Source of the DNA: an uncultured bacterium
Lineage (GTDB): Bacteria; Patescibacteriota; Minisyncoccia; Phycocordibacterales; GWA1-40-21
Assembly: GCA_963804975.1 (NCBI GenBank)
Contig: CAWDSG010000001.1
Location: 118-64,117, forward strand
Length of the DNA stretch: 64,000 nucleotides
Direction: 5' to 3'
In this document: in pieces, positions 4,414 to 61,164 of the stretch
Layout of the letters: the number at the start of each line of letters is the position of its first letter
Position numbering within the stretch: position 1 is the first letter of the stretch
Notes under the pieces: model-generated
What the model was told of the DNA's origin: nothing
Database searches by the model: none
The model's input: the letters and a program-made list of their open reading frames with translations, nothing else
Made by a program: the position numbers and the translations under genes

Positions 4414-4430
4414 AGACTCATTCGTTTGCA

Positions 4431-36020: not shown

Positions 36021-36320
36021 ATGACAAATAAAAAAACAGAAAAGTTTTTGTTAGAAGAGGAAAACGAGATTATACCTCTTGAAGACAACAGCAATTTCTT
36101 TTTTAGTTTTGATTTGGGATTAGCGACCGCACTTATAACTGCGGGATTTTCGCTTGTCTCACTGGACCGTAAAAATCTGCATAAAGCCCAATTCATTTTC
36201 CGCCGTGGAGACGGGATGGACGAAGTCGTTGATGCTTACTGGGCAGATAATCTTGAAGTGAAAGCCAGAAAATACTTTGACACTCTCAAGATGCTCAAGA
36301 ACAGATTATATTCCGAATAA
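36021..36320 (+). CDS. Hypothetical protein (element cargo)
   Basis: 99 aa ORF. Confidence 0.35.
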   Translation: MTNKKTEKFLLEEENEIIPLEDNSNFFFSFDLGLATALITAGFSLVSLDRKNLHKAQFIFRRGDGMDEVVDAYWADNLEVKARKYFDTLKMLKNRLYSE

Positions 36321-36322
36321 TT

Positions 36323-36541
36323 ATGGTTTTGTCAGATGAAGACATCATAAAATTCCAAGCACTTTATAAAAGTGAGTTCGGAATGGAAATCAGCAGAGAA
36401 GATGCCTACGAAAAAGGGATAAAACTTTTGCAATTGATGTCTGTTGTCTACAAACCTATGACGGAAAAAGAATACGAGTTTATTCAGAAGCATCGCATAG
36501 ACACGCTCCCTTTATTAGAAAAGAAACTTAAAAATATATGA
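36323..36541 (+). CDS. Hypothetical protein
   Basis: 72 aa ORF, 2-nt spacing to neighbours (operon). Confidence 0.3.
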   Translation: MVLSDEDIIKFQALYKSEFGMEISREDAYEKGIKLLQLMSVVYKPMTEKEYEFIQKHRIDTLPLLEKKLKNI

Positions 36542-36810
36542 AATCATTAGAAAGAAGGTTCCAAAGTATCGCAGAAAAAAATCCTAGTTTTAGTTCTTAC
36601 ATCTGCTTTTCCAAAGCAATAGAAGGACAGAGTTTTAACAAACAAACAGTCCATCGCTGGTTTCAAAAACTGGTTGATAAAGAGGATTATGCAAAAAATG
36701 AAAAGAGAGCCATTTTAGAGCATCTGGATAATCTTTCAAACACCTTGAGGACAACAAAAAAACAAGGCAAAACGGCTCCCCAAGCAATTCTTTTATCAAA
36801 GACGGAGTAA
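36538..36810 (+). CDS. Hypothetical protein
   Basis: 90 aa ORF overlapping previous by 4 nt. Confidence 0.3.
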   Translation: MKSLERRFQSIAEKNPSFSSYICFSKAIEGQSFNKQTVHRWFQKLVDKEDYAKNEKRAILEHLDNLSNTLRTTKKQGKTAPQAILLSKTE

Positions 36811-36840
36811 TTATCATTCACAATTAAATTATCTAACAAT

Positions 36841-38463
36841 ATGAACCTATCAAAAATTACAATCAGAGAATATCTCGCAGAGAAAGGTATCAGTTTTCGT
36901 GAGGGTGGAAATGAGCTCATCACAAAATGCCTTTTCAATGACTGCGACAGAGACAGCAAAGGAGATGACGGACATTTATATTTCAGTATAGAGACGGGAC
37001 AATATGATTGCAAAAAATGCGGAGAAAAAGGCAATCTTATTACACTTGCAAAACACTTCGGTGATACTGGACCAACTCCACGAAAAACAAACACTTTTAA
37101 TGTAGAACTCGTAGAGAAATGCCACGAGGCACTACCACCTCACATCAGAGAGTATTTACACAAGAGAGGGCTCACGGATGCCATTATAAACGAACATAAG
37201 CTCGGCTACGGGCAGTTTTATCGCAAACCTTGGATAACTATCCCTATCAAGGATATTTACGGAAATTACTCATTTTTCAAACTCCGAATGGACCCCGCTT
37301 TTGGCAACGATAAAATCACTTATCCGAAAGGAGCCGAAGCACAACTTTATGACTGGGATAACCTAACAAAACCTAACATTTCCCTTGTCATCTGCGAGGG
37401 TGAACTGGACAGATTACTCCTCCTCTCAAAAGGTGTGCCAGCAATAACCTCTACTCACGGAGCAATGACTTTCAAAGATGAGTGGGTGGAGAAGATAAGA
37501 AAAGATAATAAAATTTATATCTGTTTTGATAATGACGAAGCTGGGAAAAAGGGGTCCGAACGAGTAGCAAAAATGTTGGAAAATGTTGGATGTGAAGAAC
37601 ATATAATCACACTGCCAGATGAAGTCGGAGAAAAGGGAGACATCACCGATTATTTTATAAAACTCGGAGGGTCCGTGGATGACTTGTTTAGCAAATATGC
37701 AAAACCCTATCCAGAAAAGATTGATACCACACAATTTTCTCCGATGAGTTCAGAACAACTTATTGATACGCTCGGGCTCACTATCAAATATGATGCCGAA
37801 AATAAACTGGCAACTTTCTTATGTGAACTTTCTGCTTATACCGAAAGCTCACAATTCAATATCAGCTACAATGCCCCATCATCAACTGGAAAAAGTTATA
37901 TACCAACGGAAATTGCTCGCCTATTTCCACAAGGCGATGTTATGGAGATTGCCTACTGCTCACCCACTGCATTTTTTCACGATGTCGGGCAATATGATAA
38001 AGACAAAAACAGCTACTTGGTGGACTTATCGCATAAAATACTTATTTTTCTAGACCAACCTCACAATGAACTGCTCGCACGATTACGCCCACTTCTTTCA
38101 CACGATAAAAAAGAAATTGCGATAAAGATTACAGACAAAACACAGAAAAACGGGACTAAAACAAAAAACATTCTTTTGCGTGGCTATCCATCAGTTATCT
38201 TCTGCACTGCTGGACTTCGTAAAGATGAACAAGAAGCAACGAGATTTTTACTTCTATCTCCAGAAGTCAATCAAGACAAAATACAGCAAGGTATCAGTGC
38301 CACAATACGCAAAGAAGCAGATAGTGAAAGTTTTGTAAGCTGGCTTGAAGAAAATCCAGAAAGAATACTTCTCAAAGAGCGTATCCGTGCTATTAAACTG
38401 GAAGAAATAAAAGAAATAAATATCACAACGCCAGAAAAAATTGAAGCAGGGTTTTTTGAGTAA
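36841..38463 (+). CDS. Phage/plasmid-type DNA primase (CHC2 zinc finger + Toprim + C-terminal domain)
   Basis: 540 aa; CLFNDCDRDS..HLYFS..YDCKKCGEKGN zinc finger, Toprim LVICEGELD...DNDEAGKKG. Confidence 0.75.
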   Translation: MNLSKITIREYLAEKGISFREGGNELITKCLFNDCDRDSKGDDGHLYFSIETGQYDCKKCGEKGNLITLAKHFGDTGPTPRKTNTFNVELVEKCHEALPPHIREYLHKRGLTDAIINEHKLGYGQFYRKPWITIPIKDIYGNYSFFKLRMDPAFGNDKITYPKGAEAQLYDWDNLTKPNISLVICEGELDRLLLLSKGVPAITSTHGAMTFKDEWVEKIRKDNKIYICFDNDEAGKKGSERVAKMLENVGCEEHIITLPDEVGEKGDITDYFIKLGGSVDDLFSKYAKPYPEKIDTTQFSPMSSEQLIDTLGLTIKYDAENKLATFLCELSAYTESSQFNISYNAPSSTGKSYIPTEIARLFPQGDVMEIAYCSPTAFFHDVGQYDKDKNSYLVDLSHKILIFLDQPHNELLARLRPLLSHDKKEIAIKITDKTQKNGTKTKNILLRGYPSVIFCTAGLRKDEQEATRFLLLSPEVNQDKIQQGISATIRKEADSESFVSWLEENPERILLKERIRAIKLEEIKEINITTPEKIEAGFFE

Positions 38464-39025
38464 AAATAAAACACTCAAACCACGCCACCAAAGAGACATC
38501 AAACGCCTTCTATCACTCATCAAGTCTATTGCCCTGCTAAATGTTTGGTGGAGAGAAAGAAATGGGTCCACAATTACAGCAAACGATGACGATATAAACG
38601 AGGCGTTCAAACTCTGGGACAAAATATCTGTGAGCCAAGAACTCAACCTGCCTCCATATATTTATAATCTCTATAAAGAAGTTATCCTGCCAGCGTGGGA
38701 AGTAAAAAATAATAGCAGAAATGATGCTATTGAAAACATTACAGGCAAACTCGGTCTTTCACGCCAAGAGGTCCTTGAAAAACACTTTGCGGTTTATGGA
38801 AGGATGCTAGACGGACACCAACTTCGCCAACAAATACTCCCAATGCTAGAAACGGCAGGACTTATCGTGCAAGAACAGGACCCCCACGATAAACGCAAGA
38901 TGATGATTTTCCCCTCCTCCCTGTATCATCTTTCTAACGAGACAAAGAATAGTGAAACGGACGGTGGGGTAAAAAACACAGAGCAAGAAAATGATGAAAT
39001 TACTAGCGATGAAATAGATTTCTAA
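38441..39025 (+). CDS. Winged-helix (MarR-like) DNA-binding protein, possible replication/regulatory factor of element
   Basis: 194 aa; ...LGLSRQEVLEKHFAVYGRMLD..QQILPMLETAGLIVQEQDPHDKRKMMIF. Confidence 0.4.
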   Translation: MKQGFLSKNKTLKPRHQRDIKRLLSLIKSIALLNVWWRERNGSTITANDDDINEAFKLWDKISVSQELNLPPYIYNLYKEVILPAWEVKNNSRNDAIENITGKLGLSRQEVLEKHFAVYGRMLDGHQLRQQILPMLETAGLIVQEQDPHDKRKMMIFPSSLYHLSNETKNSETDGGVKNTEQENDEITSDEIDF

Positions 39026-39029
39026 AATT

Positions 39030-39575
39030 ATGGAGGAAACATCACAAAAACAAATTGAAGCCAACAAACTCAACGCAGAAAAAAGCACTGGTCCAAAAAC
39101 TGAAGAAGGTAAGACTGTCAGTAAATACAACGCGATGAAACACGGATTATTGAGTGAGGAAGTTTTATTGGAGGGAGAAGACGAAGAAAAACTAGAGAAA
39201 ATCGGTAAAAATCTACGAGCCGAGCTAGAACCACACACAGAAATTGAATTGATATTGGTGGATAGGATAACCGCGAATGTCTGGCGATTAAAACGTGTTA
39301 TGCAAATGGAACGAGATATGATGGATAATAGCCAAAAAGATATGTTTAGTGGTAAGTTGCAAAAACTTGGACATACATTAACGCACTACGACATTGCTCA
39401 TAACGACATATACGGCAAACTTATTCGTTATGAGGGAAGCATTGAACGAGGTATATACAAAGCATTACACGAGCTTGAGCGTATTCAAGCAAAAAGAAAT
39501 GGTGAAAAGGTGCCACCCCCGATTGCATTAGATATTGATGTATCTGGTGAAAAAGAAAATGGGTTCGTTTCGTAA
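39030..39575 (+). CDS. Hypothetical coiled-coil protein
   Basis: 181 aa ORF. Confidence 0.3.
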   Translation: MEETSQKQIEANKLNAEKSTGPKTEEGKTVSKYNAMKHGLLSEEVLLEGEDEEKLEKIGKNLRAELEPHTEIELILVDRITANVWRLKRVMQMERDMMDNSQKDMFSGKLQKLGHTLTHYDIAHNDIYGKLIRYEGSIERGIYKALHELERIQAKRNGEKVPPPIALDIDVSGEKENGFVS

Positions 39576-39700
39576 AACAATCCAATAAATCGTAAATTAT
39601 CAAAAATTAAAATTAACCATAATCAAAGCTGTTATCTAACTGTTTATCAGTATAATCAAACCTAGTTTCTCAAATGATTTCGGCTGGTTTATAAAAATAT

Positions 39701-40303
39701 ATGACTAAATCAATCGCAGAACAATCTAACGGCTTAAGTATCTTCTGGTTGAAGAAACACGGCTACCTAAACAAAGGGTCTAGCTATCAGTCTGGCGGTA
39801 TTACTTGGACCTATGGATATAGTGAAAATAAAAGCAGTATAAATTTCTCTATAATTAGAAACGACTTGGACACTCCAGAAGAAAGAGCTTATATAAATTT
39901 GAGATACACAAACACAAACAGATATTCTGGTGAAAAGGATGATATGGATTATAAAATTGAACTCACCACTACTCCCTGCCGATATGGAGGCAAGCGATAC
40001 TGGTTTATCTGTCCGTTGAGTAAAAATGGAAAGTATTGCGGGCGAAGAGTAGGAGTAATTTTCGGCATAGGCAAATGGTTCGGTTGCCGACACTGTGGAA
40101 ATATCGCCTATTCTAAACAAATGGAAGGTGGAAAATATAGGTGGAATGGAGTATCAATTCCAGACATAGAGAGAGCGGAGAAGGAAGTGAAACGATACTA
40201 TTACAAAGGAAAACCGACAAGAAAATACAGGCGAGTTTTGAGACTAAATGATAAATTTGAGGAAGGACTTATAGGAATGATGGGCAAACTAGGCAAAATA
40301 TAA
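39701..40303 (+). CDS. Hypothetical protein with Cys4 zinc-ribbon
   Basis: 200 aa; C..(x)..C ... CRHCGN. Confidence 0.35.
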   Translation: MTKSIAEQSNGLSIFWLKKHGYLNKGSSYQSGGITWTYGYSENKSSINFSIIRNDLDTPEERAYINLRYTNTNRYSGEKDDMDYKIELTTTPCRYGGKRYWFICPLSKNGKYCGRRVGVIFGIGKWFGCRHCGNIAYSKQMEGGKYRWNGVSIPDIERAEKEVKRYYYKGKPTRKYRRVLRLNDKFEEGLIGMMGKLGKI

Positions 40304-40444
40304 AACTATGACTTTAATAATAAATAATGTTATAATGTCTGTGTTGTTCCAGTTAGTAATGTATGCAGAAAACACGGGGTATTTTTATGGACAAAACGGA
40401 ACCCGAGAGGGGCGGTTTGCTAACTGTTTTGTCAATCCTCGTGA

Positions 40445-42118
40445 TTGCATCATAGCTGGAACAACCAGACCGTCCCTTTCGGGTTTTTATATATAAAAAA
40501 TATGAAAGAAGAAAATAAAAAAATAATATACTTTCTCTACGCAAGAAAATCATCAGAGAGCGAGGACAGACAGGTCCAGTCTATTGAGGACCAAATCAAT
40601 CGCCTAAAAATACTAGCGAATGACCTTGGCATTTCAATTAAAGAAATACTTACGGAGTCAAAATCAGCAAAGAAACCGAATAATCGTCCTGTGTTTACAA
40701 GTATGCTTGAAAGAATTGAGAAAGGAGAAGCTCAAGGTATTCTCTGTTGGCAAATAAATCGTCTATCACGAAATCCCGTAGATAGCGGAACTCTTGGCTG
40801 GATGCTCCAACAAGGTGCTCTGAAATCAATCCAAACAATAGACCGACAATATCTGCCAGATGATAATGTTCTTCTTTTCAGTGTTGAAAGCGGAATGGCA
40901 AATCAATTCATAATAGACCTAAAGAAAAATAGTATGCGTGGAATGGTTGGTAAAGCGGACCGAGGATGGCTTCCTTCTCGGGCTCCGATAGGATACTTGA
41001 ACGATAAACTTGAACACACGATTATTGAGGATGCACAAAGATTTCATCTGGTCCGAAAAATGTGGGATATGATGCTCACTGGAAACTATACTCCTCCACA
41101 GATAAGAGAAATTGCGAATAATAAATGGGGATTTTTAACTGCAAAGACAAAAAGAGATGGCGGTGTTGAACTGGTGAACAGTGTAATTTATAAAATGTTC
41201 ACAAATATATTCTACACTGGGATGTTTTCGTGGGCTGGAAAAGTTTATCAAGGAAATCACAAGCCGATGATTACTTTGGAAGAATACGACAGAGTGCAAG
41301 TAATTCTTGGAAGAAAAGGCAAGCCGAGAGGACAAACACACGAATTTGCTTACACTGGAGTTATAACCTGCGGTCTTTGTGGTGGAATGATTACAGCAAC
41401 AGAAAAAATGAAAATAGTGAAAACCACTGGGAAGTTAAAAAATTACATTTACTATCACTGCGGACATAAGAAAAAAGATATTGAGTGCAACCAAGAAAGA
41501 ATAACTTTGAAAGAACTTGAAGAACAAATTGATATTGAACTTGAACGAAATACCATCCTACCAAAATTCCAACAATGGGCTCTTGAAATTCTTAATAAAC
41601 ATAATGATAAAGAAATTGAAGAAAGGACCAAGGTATATGAAAACTTACACAAAGCACTTTCTGAAACACAAAAAGAACTTGATACTCTCACAAAGATGAG
41701 ATACCGAGAACTTATTGATGATGAGACATTTATAAAAGATGGAGACGAACTGAAAGCAAAGATTTTGAGAACTAAAACAAATCTACGAGAAACAGAGAGC
41801 AGAGCAGAGAAATGGCTTGAGCTTACAGAAAAAACTTTCACTTTCGCTTGTTATGCACGCAAGGAGTTTATTCTTGGTGGCTTGGATAAGAAAAGAGAGA
41901 TACTCTCGGCACTTGGGCAGAACTTTTCTTTGAAAGACAAAAAAATCGTTATAACACCTAACGAATGGTTCGTTCCAATAGAAAAGGCATATCCTGCGTT
42001 AGAAGCCGAATATAAACGGGTAGAACTGGATAAAAACCTAACAGATACAATGCGAAATGAGCTTTTTGCACAACTTATTCTCTCTTGGGGTGACTATCGG
42101 GAGTTGAACCCGAACTAA
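40445..42118 (+). CDS. Large serine recombinase (resolvase catalytic domain + recombinase domain + zinc ribbon)
   Basis: 557 aa; YARKSSESEDRQ catalytic Ser region, RLSRN, CGLCGG...YYHCGHK zinc ribbon; last codons overlap tRNA-His. Confidence 0.88.
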   Translation: MHHSWNNQTVPFGFLYIKNMKEENKKIIYFLYARKSSESEDRQVQSIEDQINRLKILANDLGISIKEILTESKSAKKPNNRPVFTSMLERIEKGEAQGILCWQINRLSRNPVDSGTLGWMLQQGALKSIQTIDRQYLPDDNVLLFSVESGMANQFIIDLKKNSMRGMVGKADRGWLPSRAPIGYLNDKLEHTIIEDAQRFHLVRKMWDMMLTGNYTPPQIREIANNKWGFLTAKTKRDGGVELVNSVIYKMFTNIFYTGMFSWAGKVYQGNHKPMITLEEYDRVQVILGRKGKPRGQTHEFAYTGVITCGLCGGMITATEKMKIVKTTGKLKNYIYYHCGHKKKDIECNQERITLKELEEQIDIELERNTILPKFQQWALEILNKHNDKEIEERTKVYENLHKALSETQKELDTLTKMRYRELIDDETFIKDGDELKAKILRTKTNLRETESRAEKWLELTEKTFTFACYARKEFILGGLDKKREILSALGQNFSLKDKKIVITPNEWFVPIEKAYPALEAEYKRVELDKNLTDTMRNELFAQLILSWGDYRELNPN

Positions 42119-42160
42119 AAGCTCCACAGGCTTCTGTGCTACCGCTACACCATAGTCACC
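42086..42160 (-). tRNA. tRNA-His (GUG) with encoded G-1 and CCA
   Basis: reverse complement gGTGACTATGGTGTAGCGGTAGCACAGAAGCCTGTGGAGCTTTTAGTTCGGGTTCAACTCCCGATAGTCACCCCA; anticodon loop CTGTGGA; extra 5-prime G pairing with C73 is His-specific. Confidence 0.85.
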
Positions 42161-52233: not shown

Positions 52234-52490
52234 ATTTAGTGCTTGGGTAACTCCGATATTTAATTCTCTTGGCGGAGAGGCTCGTGTTCCGAACTTTCTC
52301 GGTCAAGCCCTGTAATGTTATTTCAACGATTTTCAGCATATCAAATTGATGCGTCTCGTGCTACTACAAAAGGTGACACTTTTATTGAGCAAAGATTACA
52401 GTAGTATGTAACCTTTTGTTATTTTATAAGGCTTAAATTAAAAATAAATTGTAACAAAGTTACATTCTAAATTTGAGAATTTTATATATC

Positions 52491-52718
52491 TTAAAGATAA
52501 AATGAAACGAATTGAAGTAAAAATCCAATTGCAAGAAGCCCTACACCGAAAAAACCGATCACTCGATCTGTAGAAAAAAACTTTTTTGCATATGGATTAC
52601 TACCCCAATAAGTTTTGGATTCTTTTTCTATACGGTCTTTAGACCTAATCATCCCCAGTCCTAAAAGTAAGCTTCCAGCAAAATTAAAAAATAGTCCAAT
52701 AAGTTCCAATGCTTTCAT
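52491..52718 (-). CDS. Small 2-TM membrane protein, last gene of lexA-TIR operon
   Basis: 75 aa; two hydrophobic helices; 4-nt gap to upstream gene. Confidence 0.45.
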   Translation of the reverse strand: MKALELIGLFFNFAGSLLLGLGMIRSKDRIEKESKTYWGSNPYAKKFFSTDRVIGFFGVGLLAIGFLLQFVSFYL

Positions 52719-52722
52719 GTTT

Positions 52723-53334
52723 TTATTTTTTTATATCCTCCCTATCTTTTTTAGTAAAGAGTGAATACAGATATAATATTATTGATGTCAGCAAAAGAAG
52801 AAATAAAATGGTGTCCAAAATTAAACCGAAATTTATTTTTTGATACGCATTTACCCACTCCATAATTATTTTAGCTATGGCTGAAATGGTCAACAATGTA
52901 GGGAATGCCAATACGTAGATGAACCATGTCCAGTTTGAAAATGCAGGATAGTCTGATAGGTAGGATTTTCCCTCTCTGGTAATAAGATCCTCTCCAAATT
53001 TATTATTCATTTTATCCTCGATCTTATGAACATACTTGTATTGTCTTTCAATAAAAATCGCGGACTGGAAATATCTCAACGTAAACACAAGTAACAAGAA
53101 CCACACGATATTTCCGATAATGGAGAAATTCAATTCCAAGTTCAGACCATATTTTGACATTAACAGACTTTGTACAATTTGGTTTGACACACTGGGAAAC
53201 AATGCCTGAAAAGCGAAAAAGAAAAGCGTAAGAACAACCCATAACAACGCCCTGTCGCGGCGTTTTATGGTATCATTAATATTCGAACAAGTTTCTTTGT
53301 AATGGTCGTACAAAGTTGAGGTACTATCCAACAT
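52723..53334 (-). CDS. 4-TM membrane protein (candidate effector of lexA-TIR module)
   Basis: 203 aa; four predicted TM helices; start 2 nt after TIR stop. Confidence 0.5.
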   Translation of the reverse strand: MLDSTSTLYDHYKETCSNINDTIKRRDRALLWVVLTLFFFAFQALFPSVSNQIVQSLLMSKYGLNLELNFSIIGNIVWFLLLVFTLRYFQSAIFIERQYKYVHKIEDKMNNKFGEDLITREGKSYLSDYPAFSNWTWFIYVLAFPTLLTISAIAKIIMEWVNAYQKINFGLILDTILFLLLLTSIILYLYSLFTKKDREDIKK

Positions 53335-53336
53335 AT

Positions 53337-53774
53337 TTATCTTTTAGGGTAAGGAGCTTCGTCCAAAGCTTTTATGATATTATCTTCTGTAAAAGAATAG
53401 CACCATGAAGCATTTGCTCCAGTAAGCTCATCCGGTGAATCATAGGTTCTGTCGAGTTTTACTACGGCAATACGCTTACCAAGTTCTTTACTTTTTGCAA
53501 TTTCAAAATTGATCCAATTTTTATAACCGATCAAAGCCCTGTTTCTGTGCGGTGCATTTGCATTTTCTCCGACAATAACAAGAGTGTGGGTTGCTTCTTT
53601 GATTTTTAAAGTAAGTGCAGCTTTTACCCTTCCAACATTTGTGCTGTCAATTTCCTCTGGAGTTGCATCATCAAAGACAAACTCAAATCTTGGGTGTTTA
53701 TTCCATGCTTCTAAAAGAAATTTATATTTTTTATCATCTGTATAATCAAAACTAACGAAAATTTCTGGTTTCAT
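53337..53774 (-). CDS. TIR-like domain protein (DUF1863 / MTH538-type, Thoeris ThsB-like)
   Basis: 145 aa; IFVSFDYTDD start, central ...TLVIVGENANA..., W..FEI.....K.I..V.LD pattern typical of DUF1863 TIR-like fold. Confidence 0.6.
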   Translation of the reverse strand: MKPEIFVSFDYTDDKKYKFLLEAWNKHPRFEFVFDDATPEEIDSTNVGRVKAALTLKIKEATHTLVIVGENANAPHRNRALIGYKNWINFEIAKSKELGKRIAVVKLDRTYDSPDELTGANASWCYSFTEDNIIKALDEAPYPKR

Positions 53775-53786: not shown

Positions 53787-54404
53787 TTAGTATAGATCAG
53801 TGGGAAGCACAGCCACGACAACTCCCTGAATCTTACAATTATCTGTTAATATAATCGGCTTGTGTGCAGGATTTTTTGATCTTGGTCTCAAAATCACTGC
53901 ATCGTTTGTTCTCTCAAACATTTTCACTGTCGCTTCCTCATCAATCAAAGCTACGACTTTATCACCATTCTCAGCGCTTTCTTGCTGTCGAACCAAAAGA
54001 ATATTTCCGTCATTGATCCCGGCGAGATTCATGGAATCTCCCTCTGCTCTTAAAAGAAAATATTTCGATCCCTTTTTCGCAAGAGCTGTCGATACTGGAA
54101 GATATGTTTCAATATTTTGTTTGGCGAGCATCGGTGCTCCGCACGGCACCGATCCTACTAATGGAATATTGATTGTTGAGATGGAAGTCGGTATGCCGAA
54201 ATCGGTTGATATTATCTTTCCATCCTTTCTTTTGATAAAGCCCTCCTTTTCAAGACGATCGAGCACCAAACTGGCTGAACGGGGAGATTTACCCTTCGTC
54301 ACCTCGTTTATTTCAGCTAGGGTTGGTCCTGTACCAGTATGGATGAACTTGTTCCTGATAAGGATAAGCGCTTTTTTGTCCTTGTCACTTGTGTCTCTTG
54401 GCAT
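53787..54404 (-). CDS. lexA: LexA-like repressor (wHTH + S24 autopeptidase), start at MPRDTSDKDKK
   Basis: ILIRNKFIHTGTGPTLAEINEV wHTH; cleavage-site region VPCGAP; S24 catalytic GDSM and K (…VRQQ..NGDKVVAL). Confidence 0.8.
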   Translation of the reverse strand: MPRDTSDKDKKALILIRNKFIHTGTGPTLAEINEVTKGKSPRSASLVLDRLEKEGFIKRKDGKIISTDFGIPTSISTINIPLVGSVPCGAPMLAKQNIETYLPVSTALAKKGSKYFLLRAEGDSMNLAGINDGNILLVRQQESAENGDKVVALIDEEATVKMFERTNDAVILRPRSKNPAHKPIILTDNCKIQGVVVAVLPTDLY

Positions 54405-54465
54405 ATTGGTATAAGATAGTATACATGAAGGTATAAATATTGCAAGCCAGTTATAAACAGAAAAT

Positions 54466-54876
54466 ATGGAATACAAAATGGAAGCAAAACCGTTCATTCA
54501 AAAAGACGGGGTAAAATATAAAACTATTCAGGTAACCGATATTACTCTTCACTCCGATCATCTCAGAGTAACGGCAAATATCGGCGACAAGATTAAAAAA
54601 GCCTTTGACATAAATCGAGCCGGAAGATTTTACGAGGATTCCGTTCTGAAAGATGTCCTGGAAAATCAAAGAAAATATATTTTGGAAAAATTGAGCAACG
54701 ATCCGAGCTTTCGGGAATTCGTTCTGGAAGAAGAACGCAACGGATACAAGATACTGCTCGATATACCAAAAGAGGGCGTACCCGTTTTGGCGGGAAAAGA
54801 TACCGTAGAATTTTTAAATAGCAAGAACGGCAAGAGAGTTTTACGGGGACTTGCAAAAGAGAAACGAGAGGATTAG
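54466..54876 (+). CDS. Hypothetical protein divergent from lexA-like gene (element early gene?)
   Basis: 136 aa ORF. Confidence 0.35.
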   Translation: MEYKMEAKPFIQKDGVKYKTIQVTDITLHSDHLRVTANIGDKIKKAFDINRAGRFYEDSVLKDVLENQRKYILEKLSNDPSFREFVLEEERNGYKILLDIPKEGVPVLAGKDTVEFLNSKNGKRVLRGLAKEKRED

Positions 54877-55050
54877 AATATGAATGTTCGGGTTTCTGCG
54901 TAGTAAAAAGTAGAATAGCGTACCGCATAAAAAACCGTGCCTATTCCGCGCAAGAAATGAATCAAGATCTAGTCGGTCTTCTTTTATTTCGTTGTGTGGA
55001 GTGGGCTTTTTCTATTTCCATGCATTTTATAAAAATAATTTTTGTAAATT

Positions 55051-56368
55051 ATGCAAAAATTAAAAAGGGAGGTGTCAAAGAAATTAGTTTGGCACACCGA
55101 AGTCAGGAGAGTGCGAGATTTATCCCCTTACAAGAAGAATCCCCGTTTGATTAGCGACGTGCAGATGCAGGCGCTTCAGCGAAGCTTGAAGAAGTTCAAC
55201 CTTGCCGAACTGCCCGCGATCAACAAGGACGGGACTATTGTCGCTGGTCATCAAAGAATAAAGGCTTTGATACTGCTTGGTCGAGAGAATGAAAAAATCG
55301 AGGTGAGAATTCCATCGCGACAACTTACACCATCTGAGTTCAAGGATTATTTGCTCACCTCGAACAGCTCTGGAGGGAGCTGGAATTGGGAAATGCTTTC
55401 CAATGATTTTGATTTTGAAACGCTCAAGACGGTCGGTTTCGACGACATCGACCTGAGTCGTGTGTTTGATGAGCGTATCAAGAAGTCAGAAGATAAATGG
55501 GACGATGAAGCCGAGTTGAAAAAAATAAAGAAGACGAATATCAAAACAGGCGATTATTTCGCCCTCGGCAGACACCGTTTGATTTGCGGTTCATCGCTCG
55601 ACAAAGCAATGGTGAATACACTAATGGACGGAGCAAAAGCTGATCTTGTTGACGATGACGTACCTTTTAATATAGGGCTTTCATACGACAAAGGCGTGGG
55701 CAATAAACGCAATTATGGCGGAACGACAAATGATAATAAAACGGATGAGGAATATAAAACATTCGTCAAGACAATTATCGAGAATGCACTTTCAGTCACT
55801 AACAAAGATGCACATATCATATTCTGGTGCGATGAGCGCTATGTGTGGCTTTTACAGACGCTTTACAAAGAACTTGGGATCGATTCGAAGCGACTCCTCA
55901 TTTGGGTTAAGAACAATTCTTCACCCACACCCACGGTCGCTTTCAACAAGGTGGTAGAGTTTGCCGTATACGGCAGTATCGGAAGACCGTATCTCTCCAA
56001 GATCGCAACCGATCTCAATGAAATACAAAATGACGGAATGACAGGGGGTAACGATCTGCACGATGAGATTATCAACAACTCCAATCTCATGCTCACCAAA
56101 AAGACTTCCAAGCAATCAATACGGTCATCCTACGGAGAAAAGCCCTCTTCTGCATTACAAGGCAATCAGACGCTGTACCAGAGTCGGCGGTATCGTCCTC
56201 GACCTTACAGCGGGTTCAGGGAGCATACTCATGGCGTGCGAAGAATTAAAACGAACAGCATATCTCTGTGAGCTTGAGCCGGTGTTCTGCCAGCTCATCA
56301 TCAATCATTATGAGAAGCTTTCGGGAAAGAAAGCAAAATTAATTGCACGCTCCCATGAAGAAAAATAG
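55051..56368 (+). pseudogene. ParB-like nuclease domain + N6/N4 DNA methyltransferase fusion (phage-type), interrupted by a frameshift near 56110
   Basis: N: ParB motif TIVAGHQRIKAL; MTase continues in ORF 56063-56368 with HPTEKSPLL..VLDLTAGSGS (motif I region). Confidence 0.6.
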
Positions 56369-56771
56369 AATACAAGGAATATTCTTGGAGCATCTGAAAA
56401 CCGTTCCGATCGTGCAGGTATGTTGCGACAAGGCGGGCGTATCAAGAAACAGCGTATACGAGTGGCGAAAGAAAGACCCGAAATTCGCGGAAAATATGGA
56501 CAAGGCGATGATTGAGGGTGAAGCATTCATCAACGATATTAGCGAGGGACAACTCTTCAATCTCATCAAAGAGAAAAGCTGGCCCGCGCTTGCATTTTGG
56601 CTGAGAAGCAGACATCCAAAATTCAAAGAAAAGGTCGAGATTACCGGAACGATAAAAAACGAAGAGAAAGTTCTCGATTACGAGCAGGAGCAATTGCTCA
56701 GAGAAGCGCTCCGTCTTGCATTGCCGAACAATAATATAAAAAATCCAAATGGAAAACCAAAACCGCAATGA
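56343..56771 (+). CDS. Putative phage terminase small subunit (HTH)
   Basis: 142 aa; N-terminal HTH (VCCDKAGVSRNSVYEWRKKDPKFA), immediately upstream of and overlapping terL. Confidence 0.5.
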   Translation: MHAPMKKNRIQGIFLEHLKTVPIVQVCCDKAGVSRNSVYEWRKKDPKFAENMDKAMIEGEAFINDISEGQLFNLIKEKSWPALAFWLRSRHPKFKEKVEITGTIKNEEKVLDYEQEQLLREALRLALPNNNIKNPNGKPKPQ

Positions 56772-58191
56772 GGAATACATCATCGACCAGATGATCAAAG
56801 ACAAGACATTCCGTCTTGCCATGGTGAAGAAAAGCCATTACTGGTTTTTCCATTATTACTTCGGCAGAAAGTATGCAGAATTTCCAACGGCTGATTTTCA
56901 ACGAGAGATTTTCAATCTCACGGAAAATCCCGATCTTCGCAATATCGTCATTACCGCTTTTCGAGGAAGCGCAAAAAGCACGATCATCACCCTCTCATAT
57001 GTCATCTGGTCAATTGTCGGAGAAAAACAAAAGAAATTTATTCTCATATTGGGTCATACTCAAATGAGCACGCAGAAACATTTGATGAATATTAAAAAGG
57101 AATTGGAAAGTAACACGACTTTCAGAGATGACTTCGGACCGTTCAAAGAGGAAGTCGATCAAGACGGAACGCAATCAATTCTGCTTCCTCAATATGAAGC
57201 GAACATATCCACTCGTTCGATCGGACAAAATATTAGAGGTATACGGCACTTTCAGCACAGACCAGACTTGATCATTGCAGACGATATTGAGGATGCCGAG
57301 TCAGTCAAAACGCAAGAGAACAGAGATAAAATGTTCGACTGGCTCACGGGAGATGTCATTCCCGCGGGAGAAAGAAATACCCAACTCGTGTTTATCGGTA
57401 CTCCTTTGCACAATGATTCAACATTGATGAGAATGGAAAAGTTTTTCCAGAACGATGATCCGAGAAATGTCTTTAAAAAATATCCGATTGTCGATGAACA
57501 CAATGTACCGCTCTGGTCAGGCAAGTTTCAAACGCAGAAAGACATCGACGACGAGAAAACAAAATGTCTTGGAAACGAACTGACATGGCAGAGAGAATAT
57601 CTTTTGAAGATCGTCGACAATGATTATCAAATCATCAAAAGAAATGAGATTCACTACTACACCGAACTGCCGACTGTGGCTCCGAGATTCTCCGCCCTTT
57701 CCGTTGATCCCGCACGGTCGCAAAAAGCGACCGCTGATTGCACTGCCATGGTTTCGGGAAGAATATACGGATCGGGCAAGGACAGAAAATTGTACATTCT
57801 GCCGAATCCGGTGAACGAACGACTCACCACCGATCAACTTATAACCAAAGCAAAAAGTATTTCACGGAGTCTGAACAATTCGTCATATGCCCGGGTATAT
57901 GTCGAAGACGTGAACTTTCAAGGAATATTCACCGAGCTTTTGAAAAACGAAGGAGTGCCAGCAAAACCGTTTCCGGTAAAAGGTTGGAGCAAAGAAGATC
58001 GTTTGAATGCGGTATCGGCTTTGATTCAGCTCGGAAAAGTGCTTTTCGCCGACAAAGGCAACGAGGAACTTGTGGAACAGATACTGGGCTTCGGGAAAGA
58101 AAAACATGATGACCTTGTCGATGCGACCACCATGCTGATTCTTCAGATGTTCGAGGATTCGAAATTTACGCCGAGTGTAACATGGATATAG
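56749..58191 (+). CDS. Phage terminase large subunit (ATPase + RNase-H-like nuclease)
   Basis: 480 aa; Walker A AFRGSAKST, Walker B LIIADDIED, nuclease Asp residues (SVDPA, DDLVD). Confidence 0.75.
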   Translation: MENQNRNEEYIIDQMIKDKTFRLAMVKKSHYWFFHYYFGRKYAEFPTADFQREIFNLTENPDLRNIVITAFRGSAKSTIITLSYVIWSIVGEKQKKFILILGHTQMSTQKHLMNIKKELESNTTFRDDFGPFKEEVDQDGTQSILLPQYEANISTRSIGQNIRGIRHFQHRPDLIIADDIEDAESVKTQENRDKMFDWLTGDVIPAGERNTQLVFIGTPLHNDSTLMRMEKFFQNDDPRNVFKKYPIVDEHNVPLWSGKFQTQKDIDDEKTKCLGNELTWQREYLLKIVDNDYQIIKRNEIHYYTELPTVAPRFSALSVDPARSQKATADCTAMVSGRIYGSGKDRKLYILPNPVNERLTTDQLITKAKSISRSLNNSSYARVYVEDVNFQGIFTELLKNEGVPAKPFPVKGWSKEDRLNAVSALIQLGKVLFADKGNEELVEQILGFGKEKHDDLVDATTMLILQMFEDSKFTPSVTWI

Positions 58192-58193
58192 AT

Positions 58194-58850
58194 TTATAGA
58201 CCAACCGCATTGGCTCCATATTCCGCTTGTGCTTCTGTGAACTTGTCATACTCTAGTTGTGTGATTAAACTGCCTCGTGAAAAAGCGGAATAGCTCATGT
58301 AATCTTTTGCCTTTGCAGCCGCCTGTGCATTCCAGTCAGCACCTGAATTATCTGCGCCATAAATCGCATCCGCCTGTGAAAATTGATCGTACTCCAATTG
58401 AGCAACCAATCCATCGTGAGAAAATGCCGTGTAGTTTAAATAATCTATTGCTTTTGCAACAGCATTTGCCTGACTGACCGTTTCGCTTGGCGCTGTCGAT
58501 TGAACTGGAGCAGGTGTCGGTGCTGGTGTTGAAACAACCACAGGAGTTTGCGTAGGTTGAGTCACAACTGCTTTCTTGGTAATGACAGGCGCTTGAGTGA
58601 CTGGCTGTGCAACTGGTGCAGACGTTGTTGCAACAGGTGTTGGATTTTCGGTTGTTGCCACAACAGGTGCGTTTTGTGTCTGAGTGGCTGGAGAAGCTAT
58701 CGCCGCACAGATAAAGAAAAAGACAATGAGTCCACCACCGACCAAGGTGACATCTTTTCGAGATTTCAATTTTACAACTTCCGGTTTTGTTAAACCAACA
58801 ATCAATACAACGATTGATACAAGTATCAGAACAATAAATAATGATTCCAT
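58194..58850 (-). CDS. Ltp-family (host cell surface-exposed lipoprotein) superinfection-exclusion-like protein, 2 repeats, TM anchored, Pro/Thr-rich linker
   Basis: 218 aa; repeats AVAKAIDYLNYTAFSHDGLVAQLEYDQFSQADAIYGADNSG and AKAKDYMSYSAFSRGSLITQLEYDKFTEAQAEYGANAVGL match the Ltp tandem repeat. Confidence 0.6.
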   Translation of the reverse strand: MESLFIVLILVSIVVLIVGLTKPEVVKLKSRKDVTLVGGGLIVFFFICAAIASPATQTQNAPVVATTENPTPVATTSAPVAQPVTQAPVITKKAVVTQPTQTPVVVSTPAPTPAPVQSTAPSETVSQANAVAKAIDYLNYTAFSHDGLVAQLEYDQFSQADAIYGADNSGADWNAQAAAKAKDYMSYSAFSRGSLITQLEYDKFTEAQAEYGANAVGL

Positions 58851-59155
58851 TTTTTATTTTTACTAGCTGATAAAGCCAGTGATGGAATTTTTGGAAAACA
58901 AAAAGCCCACCACATGGGTGATGGCTTGCGCCATCCATACCAGTTTCCCGATATGACCAATGACGATAGCCCCATATGATGGGTTTTCTATTCGTCATTG
59001 GCTTTCTTTCATCATGCCAGCAATTACTCACTGGTTTAGATTACTTCTACTTATTCAGTTGTCAGTGAACATAATAGCTCTTTTGCAACTATTATTCAAC
59101 CGATCATATCGCCGATCACTTCTTTTGCTAAGCGAAGTTGCCAACAGACAAAATT

Positions 59156-59737
59156 CTATTGTATTTGTACAACAATATGGCTCATAGTCCCCAAAACACC
59201 TTCCAGATAGTTACTTAAGAGAAAAGACATCCCAGTTAAAATCGCAGCGATAATAAGTGCAAATATAAAAAATATTTTTTCAGGAGATTTCTGTTTAAGA
59301 AAAGAAATTCCATTGGACACAAATTTTACTCTAAAAAGATAATGCGACACTGGCATTGTAACCATCAATGGAATAATAACTGGCAGTACGAAATGAGATA
59401 AATTTCTGTATAAGATACAGAAAAATGCAACGACAAGAATATAGCCGATAATTAGCACATATTTAAAAGCTCTTAATCTCGGTTCTACTTTTGGTGGAAA
59501 TTTAAAAATAATTTCTGACCATATTAGCATTGCGCCGATCATCATAAGAAGTATAAACGCATATGCAATCAAAATTGCCCAAAGAGGAACAATTTTATTT
59601 ACCATAGTTGCTTGTAACACAGTTCCCAAAACACCTGAAAAACCGAGCATGGTTCCCATAGAAGAAATAAGAAAACTGTTCTCTTTCAAAAAAGATTGCA
59701 GGGATACTTTTTCAGCTGTTTTTTCTTCGATTTCCAT
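59156..59737 (-). CDS. Multi-pass membrane protein (hypothetical)
   Basis: 193 aa, 5-6 TM. Confidence 0.35.
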   Translation of the reverse strand: MEIEEKTAEKVSLQSFLKENSFLISSMGTMLGFSGVLGTVLQATMVNKIVPLWAILIAYAFILLMMIGAMLIWSEIIFKFPPKVEPRLRAFKYVLIIGYILVVAFFCILYRNLSHFVLPVIIPLMVTMPVSHYLFRVKFVSNGISFLKQKSPEKIFFIFALIIAAILTGMSFLLSNYLEGVLGTMSHIVVQIQ

Positions 59738-59844
59738 ATATTGGAAATCTAGTCCTTTTTACAGAAATAGCAAGTCAGAAATTGCCAACGTATTGTCAAC
59801 GATTAGTGCTTAGCAGGGCACTCTTTCTCTGTCATTAATATTGT

Positions 59845-61164
59845 ATGGAAACTAAAGTTGCGATTCCAATATTCAATCAAATTGTGCCACCGGTGGAAAA
59901 AGTGAAATACGTACTGTATGCCAGAAAAAGTACCGAGAGCGAAGAAAGGCAAATCCTTTCGATTGATTCGCAAGTCAAAGAAATGCTGCAACTGGCAGAA
60001 CGTGAAAATCTGGAAATTGTGGATATTCGAAGAGAAGCTCATTCAGCCAAAGATTCAGGACAAAGACCGGTGTTCAAGGAAATACTCTCTGATGTAAGAA
60101 GAGGAAGATTCAACGGCATACTGGCTTGGGATGCAAGCAGAATCAGTCGTAATGCAGGTGATCTTGGAAGTATTGTAGATCTCATGGATCAGAAACTTCT
60201 CCTTGATATTCGTACCTATGGACAGCAATTCAAGAACTCTCCGAATGAAAAGTTTTTGTTGATGATTCTCTGCTCACAGGCAAAGTTGGAGAATGATAAC
60301 CGAGTGATCAATGTAAAGCGAGGGCTTCGCACTCGATGTGAAATGGGACTAAGACCTGGAGTGGCACCGACAGGATATCTCAATGAAAAACGATCAGACA
60401 TGAAATGCCACGCTCGCATTGATCCAGAACGAGCACCTGTGATCAAAAAGATGTTCGAGAAAGTTGCATATGAGAAATGGAGCGGAAAGAAGATATACAA
60501 TTGGTTGAAATTTGAATTGAATTTCAGAACGGCAAATGGCAAGAAGAATTTGAGTTTGGGTAATGTCTTCGTTATTCTCTACAATCCTTTCTATTATGGA
60601 ATGTTTGAGTATCCAAAAGAAAGTGGTAATTGGTATCAAGGAAAACACCAACCGTTAATTACTAAAGAACTTTTCGATGCAGTTCAGGCTCAAATGAAAA
60701 GCAACGTTTTGAGAGTCGGGAACAAAGAATTTGCTTTTACCAAATTGATGACCTGTGGCCTTTGTGGATCGGGTATATGTGCCGATGAAAAATTCAAGAA
60801 ACACAAAAATGGCAATGTTCATAGATATGTTTATTATGGCTGTACCAAAAACAAAGATAAGAATTGTAAATGCGGATATATTGAAGAAAAAGATTTGATC
60901 AAACAGTTTGAATTGCTTCTTGATAAAATAGATATGAATGAAATCAGCATTAAAGAAAAAATTAAAACTGAAGTCGAACGATTTAAAAAATTCAATAGAG
61001 TATTACTCGGAATTACTGACAAAATAGAAATTGTTGATATTGATATAAGGGCTTATACAAAATTCATTTTGAGGGAAGGGACTGATTTGGAAAAAAGAGA
61101 GTTGTTGGGGTGTTTAAGGAGTAGTATCATGTTGAGTAATAAGAAAATCTCACTTAAATTTTAA
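59845..61164 (+). CDS. Large serine recombinase (second copy, homologous to 40445-42118)
   Basis: 439 aa; YARKSTESEERQ, RISRN, zinc-ribbon CGLCGS..YYGCTKNKDKNC. Confidence 0.85.
   Translation: METKVAIPIFNQIVPPVEKVKYVLYARKSTESEERQILSIDSQVKEMLQLAERENLEIVDIRREAHSAKDSGQRPVFKEILSDVRRGRFNGILAWDASRISRNAGDLGSIVDLMDQKLLLDIRTYGQQFKNSPNEKFLLMILCSQAKLENDNRVINVKRGLRTRCEMGLRPGVAPTGYLNEKRSDMKCHARIDPERAPVIKKMFEKVAYEKWSGKKIYNWLKFELNFRTANGKKNLSLGNVFVILYNPFYYGMFEYPKESGNWYQGKHQPLITKELFDAVQAQMKSNVLRVGNKEFAFTKLMTCGLCGSGICADEKFKKHKNGNVHRYVYYGCTKNKDKNCKCGYIEEKDLIKQFELLLDKIDMNEISIKEKIKTEVERFKKFNRVLLGITDKIEIVDIDIRAYTKFILREGTDLEKRELLGCLRSSIMLSNKKISLKF

Follow-up and report, generated by a model that had tools for sequence, protein, structure and literature searches.

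The segment from ~52,268 to ~61,164 of the window (the whole 64-kb stretch of DNA analysed here) is a copy of a conserved ~9-kb island that is widespread among the ultra-small Patescibacteria/CPR bacteria. It belongs to a large, Patescibacteria-specific family of compact integrative elements, about 8.5–15 kb in length, whose invariant core consists of four genes encoding a ParB-methyltransferase, the small (TerS) and large (TerL) terminase subunits, and a large serine recombinase (LSR) of ~440 amino acids. Variable cargo, mostly on the reverse strand and comprising defence, exclusion and membrane genes, occupies fixed slots; one slot is headed by a LOOT RNA and the other ends at a conserved non-coding left end. 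We consider the chances about even that the island represents a new type of phage-satellite-like integrative element supplying its own terminase. No published description of this element was found in a literature search. The gene content listed in an earlier sequence-only reading (repressor, ParB-methyltransferase, TerS, TerL, Ltp-like protein, membrane proteins and a second LSR) is borne out by Pfam and PHROG matches; the list was incomplete in that it overlooked the LOOT RNA, a conserved 136-aa gene and the organization of the cargo in slots.

The first core gene (55051–56368, forward strand) encodes a ParB-N-domain/N6-N4 DNA methyltransferase, as identified by Pfam and PHROG. The gene is indeed frameshifted, as had been noted, and reads in two frames (55051–56271 and 56063–56368) because the run at 56098–56102 has one A too many; its product is 65% and then 74% identical to the intact protein of locus L001 across the frame change. 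A comparable 1-nt insertion is present at ~16313–16328 in the essential EF-G gene of this contig, so the frameshift may be an assembly error rather than decay. The HTH-type TerS (56343–56771, forward) matches phrog_4044 (2.1e-12) and five other TerS PHROGs, and has syntenic homologues in all element loci. The ATPase half of TerL (56749–58191, forward; phrog_38, 4.9e-77) matches T7-type TerL in the PDB. Walker A (F71–S77), Walker B (D173–D182) and residues D320, E386, D455 and D458 are invariant among 14 TerL sequences of 44–85% identity, and the protein thereby displays the Walker A/B ATPase and the RNase-H-like nuclease acidic residues of a terminase large subunit. The dN/dS values are 0.04–0.05 for TerL and 0.02–0.09 over all four core genes. 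Variants lacking TerL, such as L026, retain a full-length TerS. The modules are mosaic: the methylase of the window is L001-like (65% identity versus 36–41% for other lineages), whereas its TerS and TerL resemble those of L004 and L010.

The fourth core gene (59845–61164, forward) encodes the LSR, which comprises Resolvase (1.2e-18), Recombinase (2.3e-15) and Zn_ribbon_recom (6.3e-07) domains. In an alignment of nine sequences with 55–76% identity, the catalytic S29, residues R27, R99 and R102, and the Zn-ribbon cysteines are invariant, and dN/dS is 0.02–0.035. The three domains and the catalytic serine identify the protein as a large serine recombinase, and its intact catalytic Ser/Arg set makes it the putative integrase of the element, an enzyme that phage satellites in general encode themselves. 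About 9 of 30 well-covered LSR loci contain no methyltransferase or terminase homologue, implying that the recombinase is able to exist without the packaging genes.

The left limit of the unit, previously placed at 53787, lies ~1.5 kb further left. A conserved non-coding left end is located at 52268–52419 (no strand assigned), where a profile of nine other loci matches the window at 52266–52378 (nhmmer, E 4e-11), and the unit consequently also takes in three further genes, one for a ThsB-like TIR protein and two for membrane proteins. Direct-repeat boxes (CTCGTG ... CTCGTG) occur in the left end, together with an inverted repeat formed by ACAAAAGGTGACA at 52366–52378 and TGTAACCTTTTGT at 52407–52419. 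Two elements that are 91% identical (L011 and L013) have unrelated left flanks, with the similarity starting exactly at the left end. A structured RNA was considered for this region and rejected, as RNAalifold yielded only −8 kcal/mol with little covariation, and Rfam gave no match; the direct-repeat boxes co-vary between loci, a pattern that suits protein-binding DNA better than RNA. On the right, conservation is limited by the 3′ end of the LSR gene, and similarity between elements stops within its last codons. Host genes are found on both sides of the element, those to the right of the LSR gene encoding an ice-binding-like protein and then a sortase (Pfam).

The reverse-strand cargo next to the left end comprises the gene of a ThsB-like TIR-domain protein of the defence type (53337–53774; PF08937 ThsB_TIR, 2.9e-10; phrog_6988, 8e-35; PADLOC ThsB, 2.5e-10), that of a 203-aa multi-pass membrane protein (52723–53334; ORF list, no Pfam or PADLOC match) and, as the final gene of the operon, that of a 75-aa two-helix membrane protein (52491–52718; ORF list, no family match). 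The 203-aa protein is a possible effector partner of the TIR protein. PADLOC returned the ThsB-like match only, with unclassified membrane proteins as neighbours and no ThsA (SIR2/Macro-SLOG) effector of a Thoeris system. Divergent from the packaging operon is the gene of a LexA/CI-type self-cleaving repressor (53787–54497, reverse; Peptidase_S24, 2.6e-30; LexA_DNA_bind, 1.2e-07), which has no homologue at the same position in the other loci compared; it is specific to this copy and lies outside the core. The conserved 136-aa protein (54466–54876, forward) is present in a subset of elements, with syntenic homologues 42–55% identical, and its gene directly precedes that of the methylase also in L001, L035, L043, L047, L061, L069, L083, L085 and L118. 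Its AF2 model (pLDDT 87) matches nothing in PDB or BFVD, and the fold is not recognizable.

Downstream of TerL, the slot is held by the gene of an Ltp-family surface protein of the superinfection-exclusion type (58194–58850, reverse; PF07553, 1.9e-20, two repeats; phrog_4980, 5.6e-32), and carries a different gene in every other lineage. A 193-aa multi-pass membrane protein (59156–59737, reverse; ORF list, Pfam) is encoded between the LOOT RNA and the LSR gene; it is copy-specific and missing at the corresponding place in other loci. Across the family, conserved blocks enclose exchangeable cargo in which defence families abound, including SIR2, Shedu SduA_C, DUF8370/8371, helicases and, in the window, ThsB-TIR. 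With hundreds of members detected, the family would give these reduced genomes a major route for exchanging defence genes.

The LOOT RNA (Rfam RF03000; 58920–59042, reverse) reaches 86.8 bits (gathering score 46.4; E 2.5e-15) and covers the full Rfam model, positions 1–121. That it heads the cargo slot and neighbours the recombinase gene of the element is a new observation of the present analysis. A terminator-like hairpin with a U-run (58906–58918, reverse) is positioned directly 3′ of LOOT and 5′ of the Ltp gene, and an equivalent is found in most of the 17 loci compared. Before the metagenome survey, LOOT was present in each of the 11 non-redundant TerL loci scanned (L001, L004, L006, L008, L010–L014, L016 and L017); it also occurs in L019, L020 and 42 of 80 metagenome loci of the LSR family. 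Our own model R1 contains no more than 16 pairs and falls short of the Rfam model in sensitivity, so counts made with it are lower bounds. LOOT adjoins the recombinase in 33 of the 42 positive loci, including loci without a terminase. None of seven compact methylase-TerS-TerL-recombinase loci tested has LOOT at the Rfam threshold, and the core thus does not need it. Neither of the two papers in the searched library that use the name gives a function for LOOT; this orphan RNA now has a concrete genetic context in which its function is testable.

The array ParB-methyltransferase, TerS, TerL and LSR recurs in 86 non-redundant loci (those having both TerL and the recombinase), and every one with an identifiable taxonomy is from Patescibacteria. 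The LSR gene lies 80–343 nt past TerL in 34 of these loci and is separated from it by a slot of 0.45–3 kb in 37. The same array, flanked by host genes, is found at every TerL homologue examined, down to 45% identity, and these loci gave no Pfam match to a structural gene. Hosts include Minisyncoccia, Parcubacteria, Kerfeldbacteria and one MAG labelled as Saccharibacteria, a doubtful label because its flanks show 78–89% identity to a MAG labelled as Parcubacteria. JGI metagenomes contain at least 551 recombinase loci, and tandem or multiple copies of the element occur on some contigs. An alignment-based scan of IMG/VR revealed at least 402 TerL relatives; with a single TerL as the query no close relatives were found there. 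Many copies are listed in IMG/VR as viral contigs on the basis of TerL alone, which inflates virus counts for Patescibacteria, a large share of bacterial diversity whose mobile elements and phage interactions are barely described.

The element TerLs form one clade beside phage TerLs in a neighbour-joining tree without support values. The nearest outside TerLs, at most 48% identical, are from real phages having portal and capsid genes. Portal homologues follow TerL only where the recombinase is missing, as in the LSR-less L141 contig, a full phage with TerS, TerL, portal, protease and major capsid protein (MCP). The G+C content of the core is 0.44, with a constant offset of +3–7 points from the host in every host. 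It was considered as a sign of recent transfer and discarded, since the offset is constant and core G+C tracks that of each host, which suggests long residence instead.

The reported absence of portal and capsid genes was confirmed by tblastn, in which the portal and MCP of a related phage had no match in the window. A PHROG/Pfam scan of the larger ORFs of the window for structural genes returned chromosomal genes or those of a primase element only, no portal or capsid gene was observed in the 86 array loci, and no phage-structural gene occurs within 10 kb at more than 10 loci on contigs of up to 0.9 Mb. The window and these related loci thus share with satellites in general the lack of virion structural and lysis genes. 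The structural module that would adjoin the terminase in an intact or merely truncated prophage is missing; TerL is followed by cargo and the LSR, and the related loci are alike in this respect. Neither the core nor this copy has a primase, helicase or Rep family, the replication module typical of satellites, and no replication gene or origin was found in the element.

A search for att sites as direct or inverted repeats at 33–64 kb gave chance-level matches only. Alignments of left against right ends were inconsistent across loci, without terminal inverted symmetry, and an information-content scan of 91 right flanks revealed no conserved target motif beside the LSR gene; the att sites of LSRs, imperfect inverted half-sites around a shared central dinucleotide, are short, and such repeat and motif searches could miss attL and attR. 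The slot borders have no repeated recombination sites flanking the cargo. Circular or concatemeric contigs were absent from 183 loci, and no excision product was found. A search for the empty site was unsuccessful: homologues of the neighbouring AsnRS-like gene (85% identical) lie in non-syntenic contexts, which makes a presence/absence comparison impossible. No helper phage was identified, the nearest phage TerLs being those at no more than 48% identity.

A comparison with known satellites reveals partial similarities. PICIs and SaPIs are likewise integrated islands of ~10–15 kb; they too have a divergent repressor, their own TerS and cargo of accessory or defence genes, and they lack virion genes. 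The variants without TerL (L026) come closest to them, keeping a full-length TerS as PICIs do. By contrast, PICIs have a tyrosine integrase, followed in order by an Stl-type repressor, pri-rep and terS, whereas the element has a serine recombinase at the opposite end and no pri-rep. It also lacks a primase/replicase, an origin, and capsid-size or packaging-interference genes, encodes its own TerL and a ParB-methylase, and resides in Patescibacteria. The cf-PICIs are satellites that encode both TerS and TerL, like the element, but also portal, protease, major capsid and connector proteins, of which the element has none. P4-like satellites and P2 prophages exchange diverse anti-phage systems in fixed slots between conserved genes, an organization similar to that of the element; P4, however, relies on the terminase of its helper via cos sites, integrates with a tyrosine enzyme and possesses a primase and capsid-size genes. 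The integrases of temperate phages of the phiC31, A118 and SPbeta types have the same Resolvase, Recombinase and Zn-ribbon domains as the element LSR, which differs in being short (~440 aa) and in lying immediately behind TerL, at the place taken by the portal gene in phages. The PICMIs, minimalist satellites of Vibrionaceae, are, like the element, very small and free of capsid-remodelling genes (PMC10803314). They consist of int, alpA and primase without terS and integrate beside fis (PMC10803314); the element has none of these core genes and does have a terminase.

The retention of a packaging motor, a methylase and an integration enzyme without virus-shell genes is most likely that of a hitch-hiker on phages. 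A capsid-hijacking satellite with its own terminase, as had been suggested, is the best available reading, but the element is not a member of the PICIs. The element would reside in the chromosome until its packaging operon is de-repressed, in this copy by cleavage of the divergent LexA/S24 repressor or generally by infection with a helper phage, upon which the recombinase would excise it. TerS would recognize a site on the element DNA, with the co-varying left-end repeats as a candidate, and TerL would cut the DNA and pump it into procapsids of a helper phage of related terminase-portal type, spreading the element and diverting capsids from the phage. The methylase may mark or protect the DNA, and LOOT, with its own promoter-like site and terminator, could control whether the slot cargo is expressed. 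PICMIs offer a precedent: such a small satellite can fill a helper capsid as a concatemer although it has no capsid-remodelling genes (PMC10803314). Several observations argue against a satellite: the families considered (PICI, P4-like, PLE and PICMI) each have a replication gene or origin, the searches yielded no helper phage, att repeats, target motif or circular forms, core G+C is host-like, LOOT is absent from compact loci, and the recombinase also occurs without packaging genes in about 9 of 30 loci. If correct, a satellite type defined by a complete terminase in the absence of capsid genes would here be described for the first time.

The phage-type families of all the genes raise the alternative, proposed earlier, of a decayed prophage, that is, a temperate-phage remnant after deletion of structural, lysis and replication genes. 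The two-frame methylase of this copy and the methylase and recombinase of L005, both split relative to the near-identical L004, would agree with decay. However, 86 non-redundant loci share this truncated gene set, with dN/dS of 0.02–0.09 and invariant catalytic residues, no related locus has a portal, the TerLs form their own clade, and the frameshift may be an assembly error like that of EF-G. This strong purifying selection on a conserved array with host genes on both sides indicates a functional architecture and not random decay; for the family as a whole decay is contradicted, and we regard a remnant as very improbable. It is unlikely that the island is a domesticated chromosomal defence module without capsid transfer, in which the methylase would label the cell's own DNA, TerS-TerL would attack unmodified phage DNA as a sequence-directed, ATP-dependent nuclease or sabotage phage packaging, and the recombinase would merely move or rearrange the island. 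In favour are the invariable pairing of the methylase with the nuclease/ATPase genes, the position of the elements amid defence genes as well as their defence cargo, the host-like G+C, and searches in which no replication genes, att sites or circular forms were found. Yet a ParB-methylase upstream of terS-terL is an ordinary layout of phage packaging modules, and PADLOC has no model matching TerL or the recombinase. The close operon linkage to an integrase-type recombinase, the exchange of modules among mosaic elements and the occurrence of one element in unrelated contexts point to a mobile element.

Less probable still is that the four-gene operon constitutes a capsid-free machine with a terminase exapted to cut and translocate DNA and LOOT as its RNA partner. 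The terminase would then be a site-directed device to move or destroy DNA, and LOOT a packaging-RNA-like motor cofactor, or a cofactor or guide of the LSR at the cargo slot; such a system would be a new Patescibacteria-specific mobile or defence class, not a phage satellite. We also think it improbable that the island is the packaging-integration part of a split prophage or GTA-like system with capsid and tail genes elsewhere in the genome. A complete terminase is otherwise hard to use without a portal, and inspection covered about 10 kb per side of each locus; on the other hand, no phage-structural gene occurs in the 64-kb window or near more than 10 loci, and multiple divergent copies per contig better fit parasitic elements than one host-controlled machine. 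A similarly low probability applies to a cargo-capture platform of integron-like layout, in which the recombinase would insert or exchange cassettes in the slot downstream of LOOT and the methylase-terminase genes would be old, common cargo. The recombinase-LOOT adjacency in 33 of 42 loci, some without terminase, the variation of the gene directly downstream of LOOT between otherwise similar elements, and the better conservation of the recombinase than of TerL are in line with this arrangement. Against it stand the compact arrays (34 of 86 loci, with LOOT at the Rfam threshold in none of the seven tested) and the lack of repeated sites flanking the cargo; moreover, no serine recombinase is known to run a cassette system.

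The two serine recombinases of the window were earlier taken to mark related elements. They are homologous, with 35% identity over 355 aa, but fall into different subfamilies; the first (40445) is located at a tRNA-His gene beside a primase and has no further gene in common with the second element, and the two belong to unrelated elements. The compact LSR subfamily of the island shares no more than 30% identity with the recombinases of 50,697 phage and 72,556 plasmid records and is of possible interest for integrase mining.

The window is a stretch of Patescibacteria (CPR) chromosome, and the best homologues of its proteins are named Patescibacteria or Parcubacteria. The first 26 kb encode RecG, EF-Tu, EF-G, ribosomal proteins, ComEC and ParB, and the region from 42 to 52 kb carries tRNAs and the genes of L19, PilM/N, RuvX, malic enzyme and an AsnRS-like protein. 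Every gene that the sequence-only reading had listed for the terminase-recombinase element was matched by Pfam and PHROGs: a LexA/S24 repressor (53787-54497, reverse strand), a ParB-N6/N4 methylase in two frames (55051-56368), the terminase small subunit (TerS, 56343-56771), the terminase large subunit (TerL, 56749-58191; phrog_38, 4.9e-77), an Ltp-family protein (58194-58850, reverse strand) and a large serine recombinase (LSR, 59845-61164). A membrane protein (59156-59737, reverse strand) was matched likewise. The repressor is part of a left cargo operon that also encodes a ThsB-like TIR protein (PADLOC, 2.5e-10) and two membrane proteins. The TIR gene and the two small multi-pass membrane proteins after it occupy 52491-53774, with no ThsA, and could constitute a TIR-plus-membrane-effector defence pair. 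Residues of an invariant basic C-terminal motif, EF-x-NSKNGKR-x-LRG-x-AK, characterize a 136-aa protein at 54466-54876, whose predicted fold is confident (pLDDT 87) and has no match in PDB or BFVD.

No structural gene turned up in the window. The portal and capsid protein of a related phage gave no tblastn match in it, and the larger ORFs outside the element are chromosomal or part of a separate primase element. The source contig has 64,446 bp, and a structural module just past the window is unlikely because the right flank of the element encodes an ice-binding-like surface protein and a sortase.

A block comparison of elements sharing 83-93% DNA identity revealed two shared blocks. One is the core, which begins roughly 220 nt upstream of the methylase gene and extends into the last LSR codons; the other is a separate non-coding segment of ~150 nt, the left end, located 2.7-4.6 kb upstream, and variable reverse-strand genes lie between the two. 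A profile of the left end matches 11 of 13 non-redundant TerL loci tested, with no match in L017 and L020, both of compact type, and is found in the window at 52266-52378 (E 4e-11). The strongest evidence for the boundary is provided by the related loci L011 and L013, whose elements are 91% identical and whose left flanks are wholly unrelated, the similarity beginning precisely at the first bases of the left end. In locus L016, the left end directly adjoins the LSR stop codon of another element. With the left end as boundary, the element of the window spans ~52,268 to ~61,164, about 8.9 kb, rather than starting at the repressor gene (53787) as had been supposed. On the right side, conservation ends within the last LSR codons, the C-terminal tails differ in length, and the flanks past the LSR share no conserved motif.

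The two elements of L016 stand in tandem (3294-5521): a second LOOT RNA (Rfam RF03000; 3294-3407, reverse strand) and a 488-aa LSR of the other subfamily (3890-5356) end precisely at the point where the terminase element's left end starts (5321). The left-end segment has little RNA-structure support. Its short boxes co-vary between lineages as direct and inverted repeats (CTCGAGC/CTCGAGC, GTGACA/GTGACA/TGTCAC), and because they change together the segment is a candidate protein-binding site, for which we propose a putative role as packaging (pac) site or end-recognition site.

Seven TerL homologues of 45-80% identity were inspected in their own contigs. All show the same arrangement, in which an intact ParB-methylase (~426-453 aa) is followed by TerS (~131-149 aa), TerL and an LSR (~430-460 aa), the last either immediately adjacent or with one or two reverse-strand genes in between. 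Within 10 kb, each of the seven is followed by ordinary host genes, and no structural-gene Pfam was found over the same distance. The array occurs in GTDB representative genomes of Minisyncoccia, Parcubacteria, Kerfeldbacteria and one MAG labelled Saccharibacteria, with synteny confirmed by tblastn; at least 551 metagenome loci were matched by the LSR alignment, and 402 relatives in IMG/VR by the TerL alignment. Among 86 non-redundant loci having both TerL and LSR, 34 are compact (the LSR starts 80-343 nt after TerL), 37 contain a slot of 0.45-3 kb for variable, mostly reverse-strand cargo (1,657 nt in the window), 12 show a distance above 3 kb and three a different order.

All four core genes are strongly constrained by purifying selection, with dN/dS values of 0.02-0.09 at dS 0.5-1.8. 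Across 44-85% identity, TerL has invariant Walker A and B motifs, C-motif and nuclease acidic residues, and the catalytic Ser and Arg and the zinc-ribbon cysteines are likewise invariant in the LSR alignment. Together with the conserved array, these features rule out for the family the decayed prophage that had been offered as one option. The frameshift noticed in the methylase comes down to a single extra A within the run 56098-56102. A comparable insertion splits the gene of the essential EF-G (fusA, 15107-17225) into two overlapping ORFs by one extra G (GATGAC-G-GAGCCC, at 16313-16328), which suggests that the assembly contains indel errors, unless the genome has another fusA copy elsewhere. 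An assembly error is thus a real possibility for the methylase as well, and its frameshift should not be taken as decay.

Several features indicate that the pool of such elements is active. The element in the window is a mosaic with a breakpoint near 56.33-56.44 kb. The 136-aa gene and the methylase resemble those of locus L001 (methylase 65% identical, versus 36-41% for other lineages), and TerS and TerL resemble those of L004 and L010 (61-85%, versus 38% for TerS and 73% for TerL of L001). Otherwise similar elements vary in cargo, which includes SIR2, DUF8370/8371, Shedu SduA_C, large helicases, DUF4352 and bPH_2 proteins, and several contigs contain two elements. The IMG/VR contigs of L108/L133, L122/L151 and L139/L143 harbor two divergent methylase-TerS-TerL-LSR modules, 10-35 kb apart; IMG/VR classes these and many other copies, which have no virion genes, as viral genomes.

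In a set of 30 LSR loci whose upstream sequence extends for 6 kb or more, the full packaging module is found in 16, only the methylase and a TerS-like gene in five, and no MTase or terminase homologue in nine. Variants without TerL, such as L026, still carry LOOT and the LSR together with the methylase and a full-length TerS, and by analogy with PICIs would need the TerL of a helper. L024, one of the nine, has a methylase pair and no detectable terminase. In this LSR/LOOT locus (2142-4222, 7371-7808), the pair is followed by proteins of 134 and 491 aa at the places of TerS and TerL, neither with a PHROG match, and a reverse-transcriptase fragment is also present. An extra gene of ~800 nt separates the ParB-methylase from TerS in L108, L109, L122 and many other IMG/VR loci; the gene at this place in L024 is a second DNA methylase (phrog_498, 2e-60).

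A full-length LOOT RNA is located at 58920-59042 on the reverse strand (Rfam, 86.8 bits), preceded by two promoter-like sites and followed by a short hairpin and a U-run, with the Ltp start codon 70 nt further. LOOT is present in all 11 non-redundant TerL loci scanned ahead of the metagenome survey, and in L019 and L020. In the metagenomes, a crude self-built model detected it in 42 of 80 LSR-family loci, where it is divergent from the LSR gene and less than 600 nt upstream (28), on the same strand just downstream (five), or further away, usually with inserted genes between (nine). The RNA points into variable cargo in every arrangement, and none of seven compact loci tested, all without a slot, contains it at the Rfam threshold; LOOT thus travels with the cargo slot, and is likeliest to be a leader or small RNA controlling the slot cargo. 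The RNA is named in just two papers of the library searched, and they assign it no function. The 3' half of the post-LOOT hairpin can pair further downstream instead, which places the U-run in a loop (window 58906-58850, reverse strand; L008, L014, L019 and L059), and the two alternative structures could gate read-through into the cargo gene.

The closest TerL among 50,697 deposited phage genomes shares 30% identity and belongs to Mu-like Mannheimia and Haemophilus phages; the nearest relative with a solved structure is a T7-type terminase. Within IMG/VR, the methylase-TerS(-LSR) module accompanies TerLs of about 42% identity or more, and those of 34-48% identity that lack an LSR have a portal homologue downstream. 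One of the latter, L141 (IMGVR_UViG_3300033150_000600, 49.7 kb), has the look of a complete tailed phage: it encodes TerS, TerL, a portal, a protease/scaffold and an HK97-type capsid protein. With a TerL 43-48% identical to those of the elements, this phage may represent the helper lineage. The portal is fused to a head-morphogenesis domain, and QueD and thymidylate-synthase/RNR-like genes are also encoded. In a neighbour-joining tree of 127 TerLs, midpoint-rooted and drawn without support values, the element TerLs group in a single clade that excludes the portal-linked TerLs. The simplest reading is one old capture of a phage packaging module, followed by diversification alongside the LSR; donor-type phages survive today and are possible helpers. 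The TerL of L103 (3020-5095) is about 200 aa longer (691 aa), and a gap of 1.3-1.6 kb separates the TerS and TerL matches in L115, L116, L117 and L120; an intein, an inserted domain or an extra gene may account for these differences.

A satellite-like integrative element is the best-supported model, and we give it about an even chance of being correct. The LSR would excise and integrate the element, TerS and TerL would package it in capsids supplied by a related type of helper phage, the methylase would mark the DNA, and the cargo would repay the host with defence and exclusion functions; in this copy, the LexA-type repressor, divergent from the packaging operon, would tie induction to DNA damage. 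Gene content, conservation, phylogeny, slots and boundaries rest on direct observation, and what is inferred is excision, packaging, a helper phage and the functions of the left end and of LOOT. We rate the model no higher because a replication module is lacking, searches for att sites and circular forms found none, the search for an empty site likewise yielded none, and the G+C of the element tracks that of each host. The same genes might instead serve a defence or processing module independent of capsids, which we consider unlikely. A split prophage or a GTA-like system is less probable still, given that structural genes were found neither in the window nor within 10 kb of more than ten related loci, and a cargo platform of LSR and LOOT is rated equally low. 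Simple decay of a prophage, against which the conserved array, the low dN/dS and the invariant catalytic residues stand, is very improbable.

The element works most like a phage satellite, yet it belongs to none of the named families: it lacks the tyrosine integrase and pri-rep of PICIs, the capsid genes of cf-PICIs, the int-alpA-prim core of PICMIs, and the cos, sid and primase of P4. The earlier suggestion of a PICI-like satellite with its own terminase is accordingly retained as to the satellite-like character and dropped as to PICI membership. Across the phage and plasmid collections searched, no recombinase exceeds 30% identity to the LSR, and full-text literature searches found no description of the element. 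Its RNA component, LOOT, is unexplained, and leaves room for a less ordinary explanation.

The second serine recombinase of the window (40445-42118) had been regarded as part of a related element. It is 35% identical to the element LSR, comes after a Toprim primase and overlaps tRNA-His, and belongs to a different kind of element. This separate integrative element (~34000-42159) includes the primase (36841-38463) and several ORFs without family match, and contains no LOOT, terminase or structural genes; the last 33 nt of its 557-aa recombinase gene overlap the tRNA-His gene (42086-42159, reverse strand). In both subfamilies, serine recombinase genes can terminate no more than about 100 nt from a tRNA gene, as seen at 42086-42159 in the window and at 11397-12608 in L087. 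Sites close to tRNAs are not the usual targets of serine integrases.
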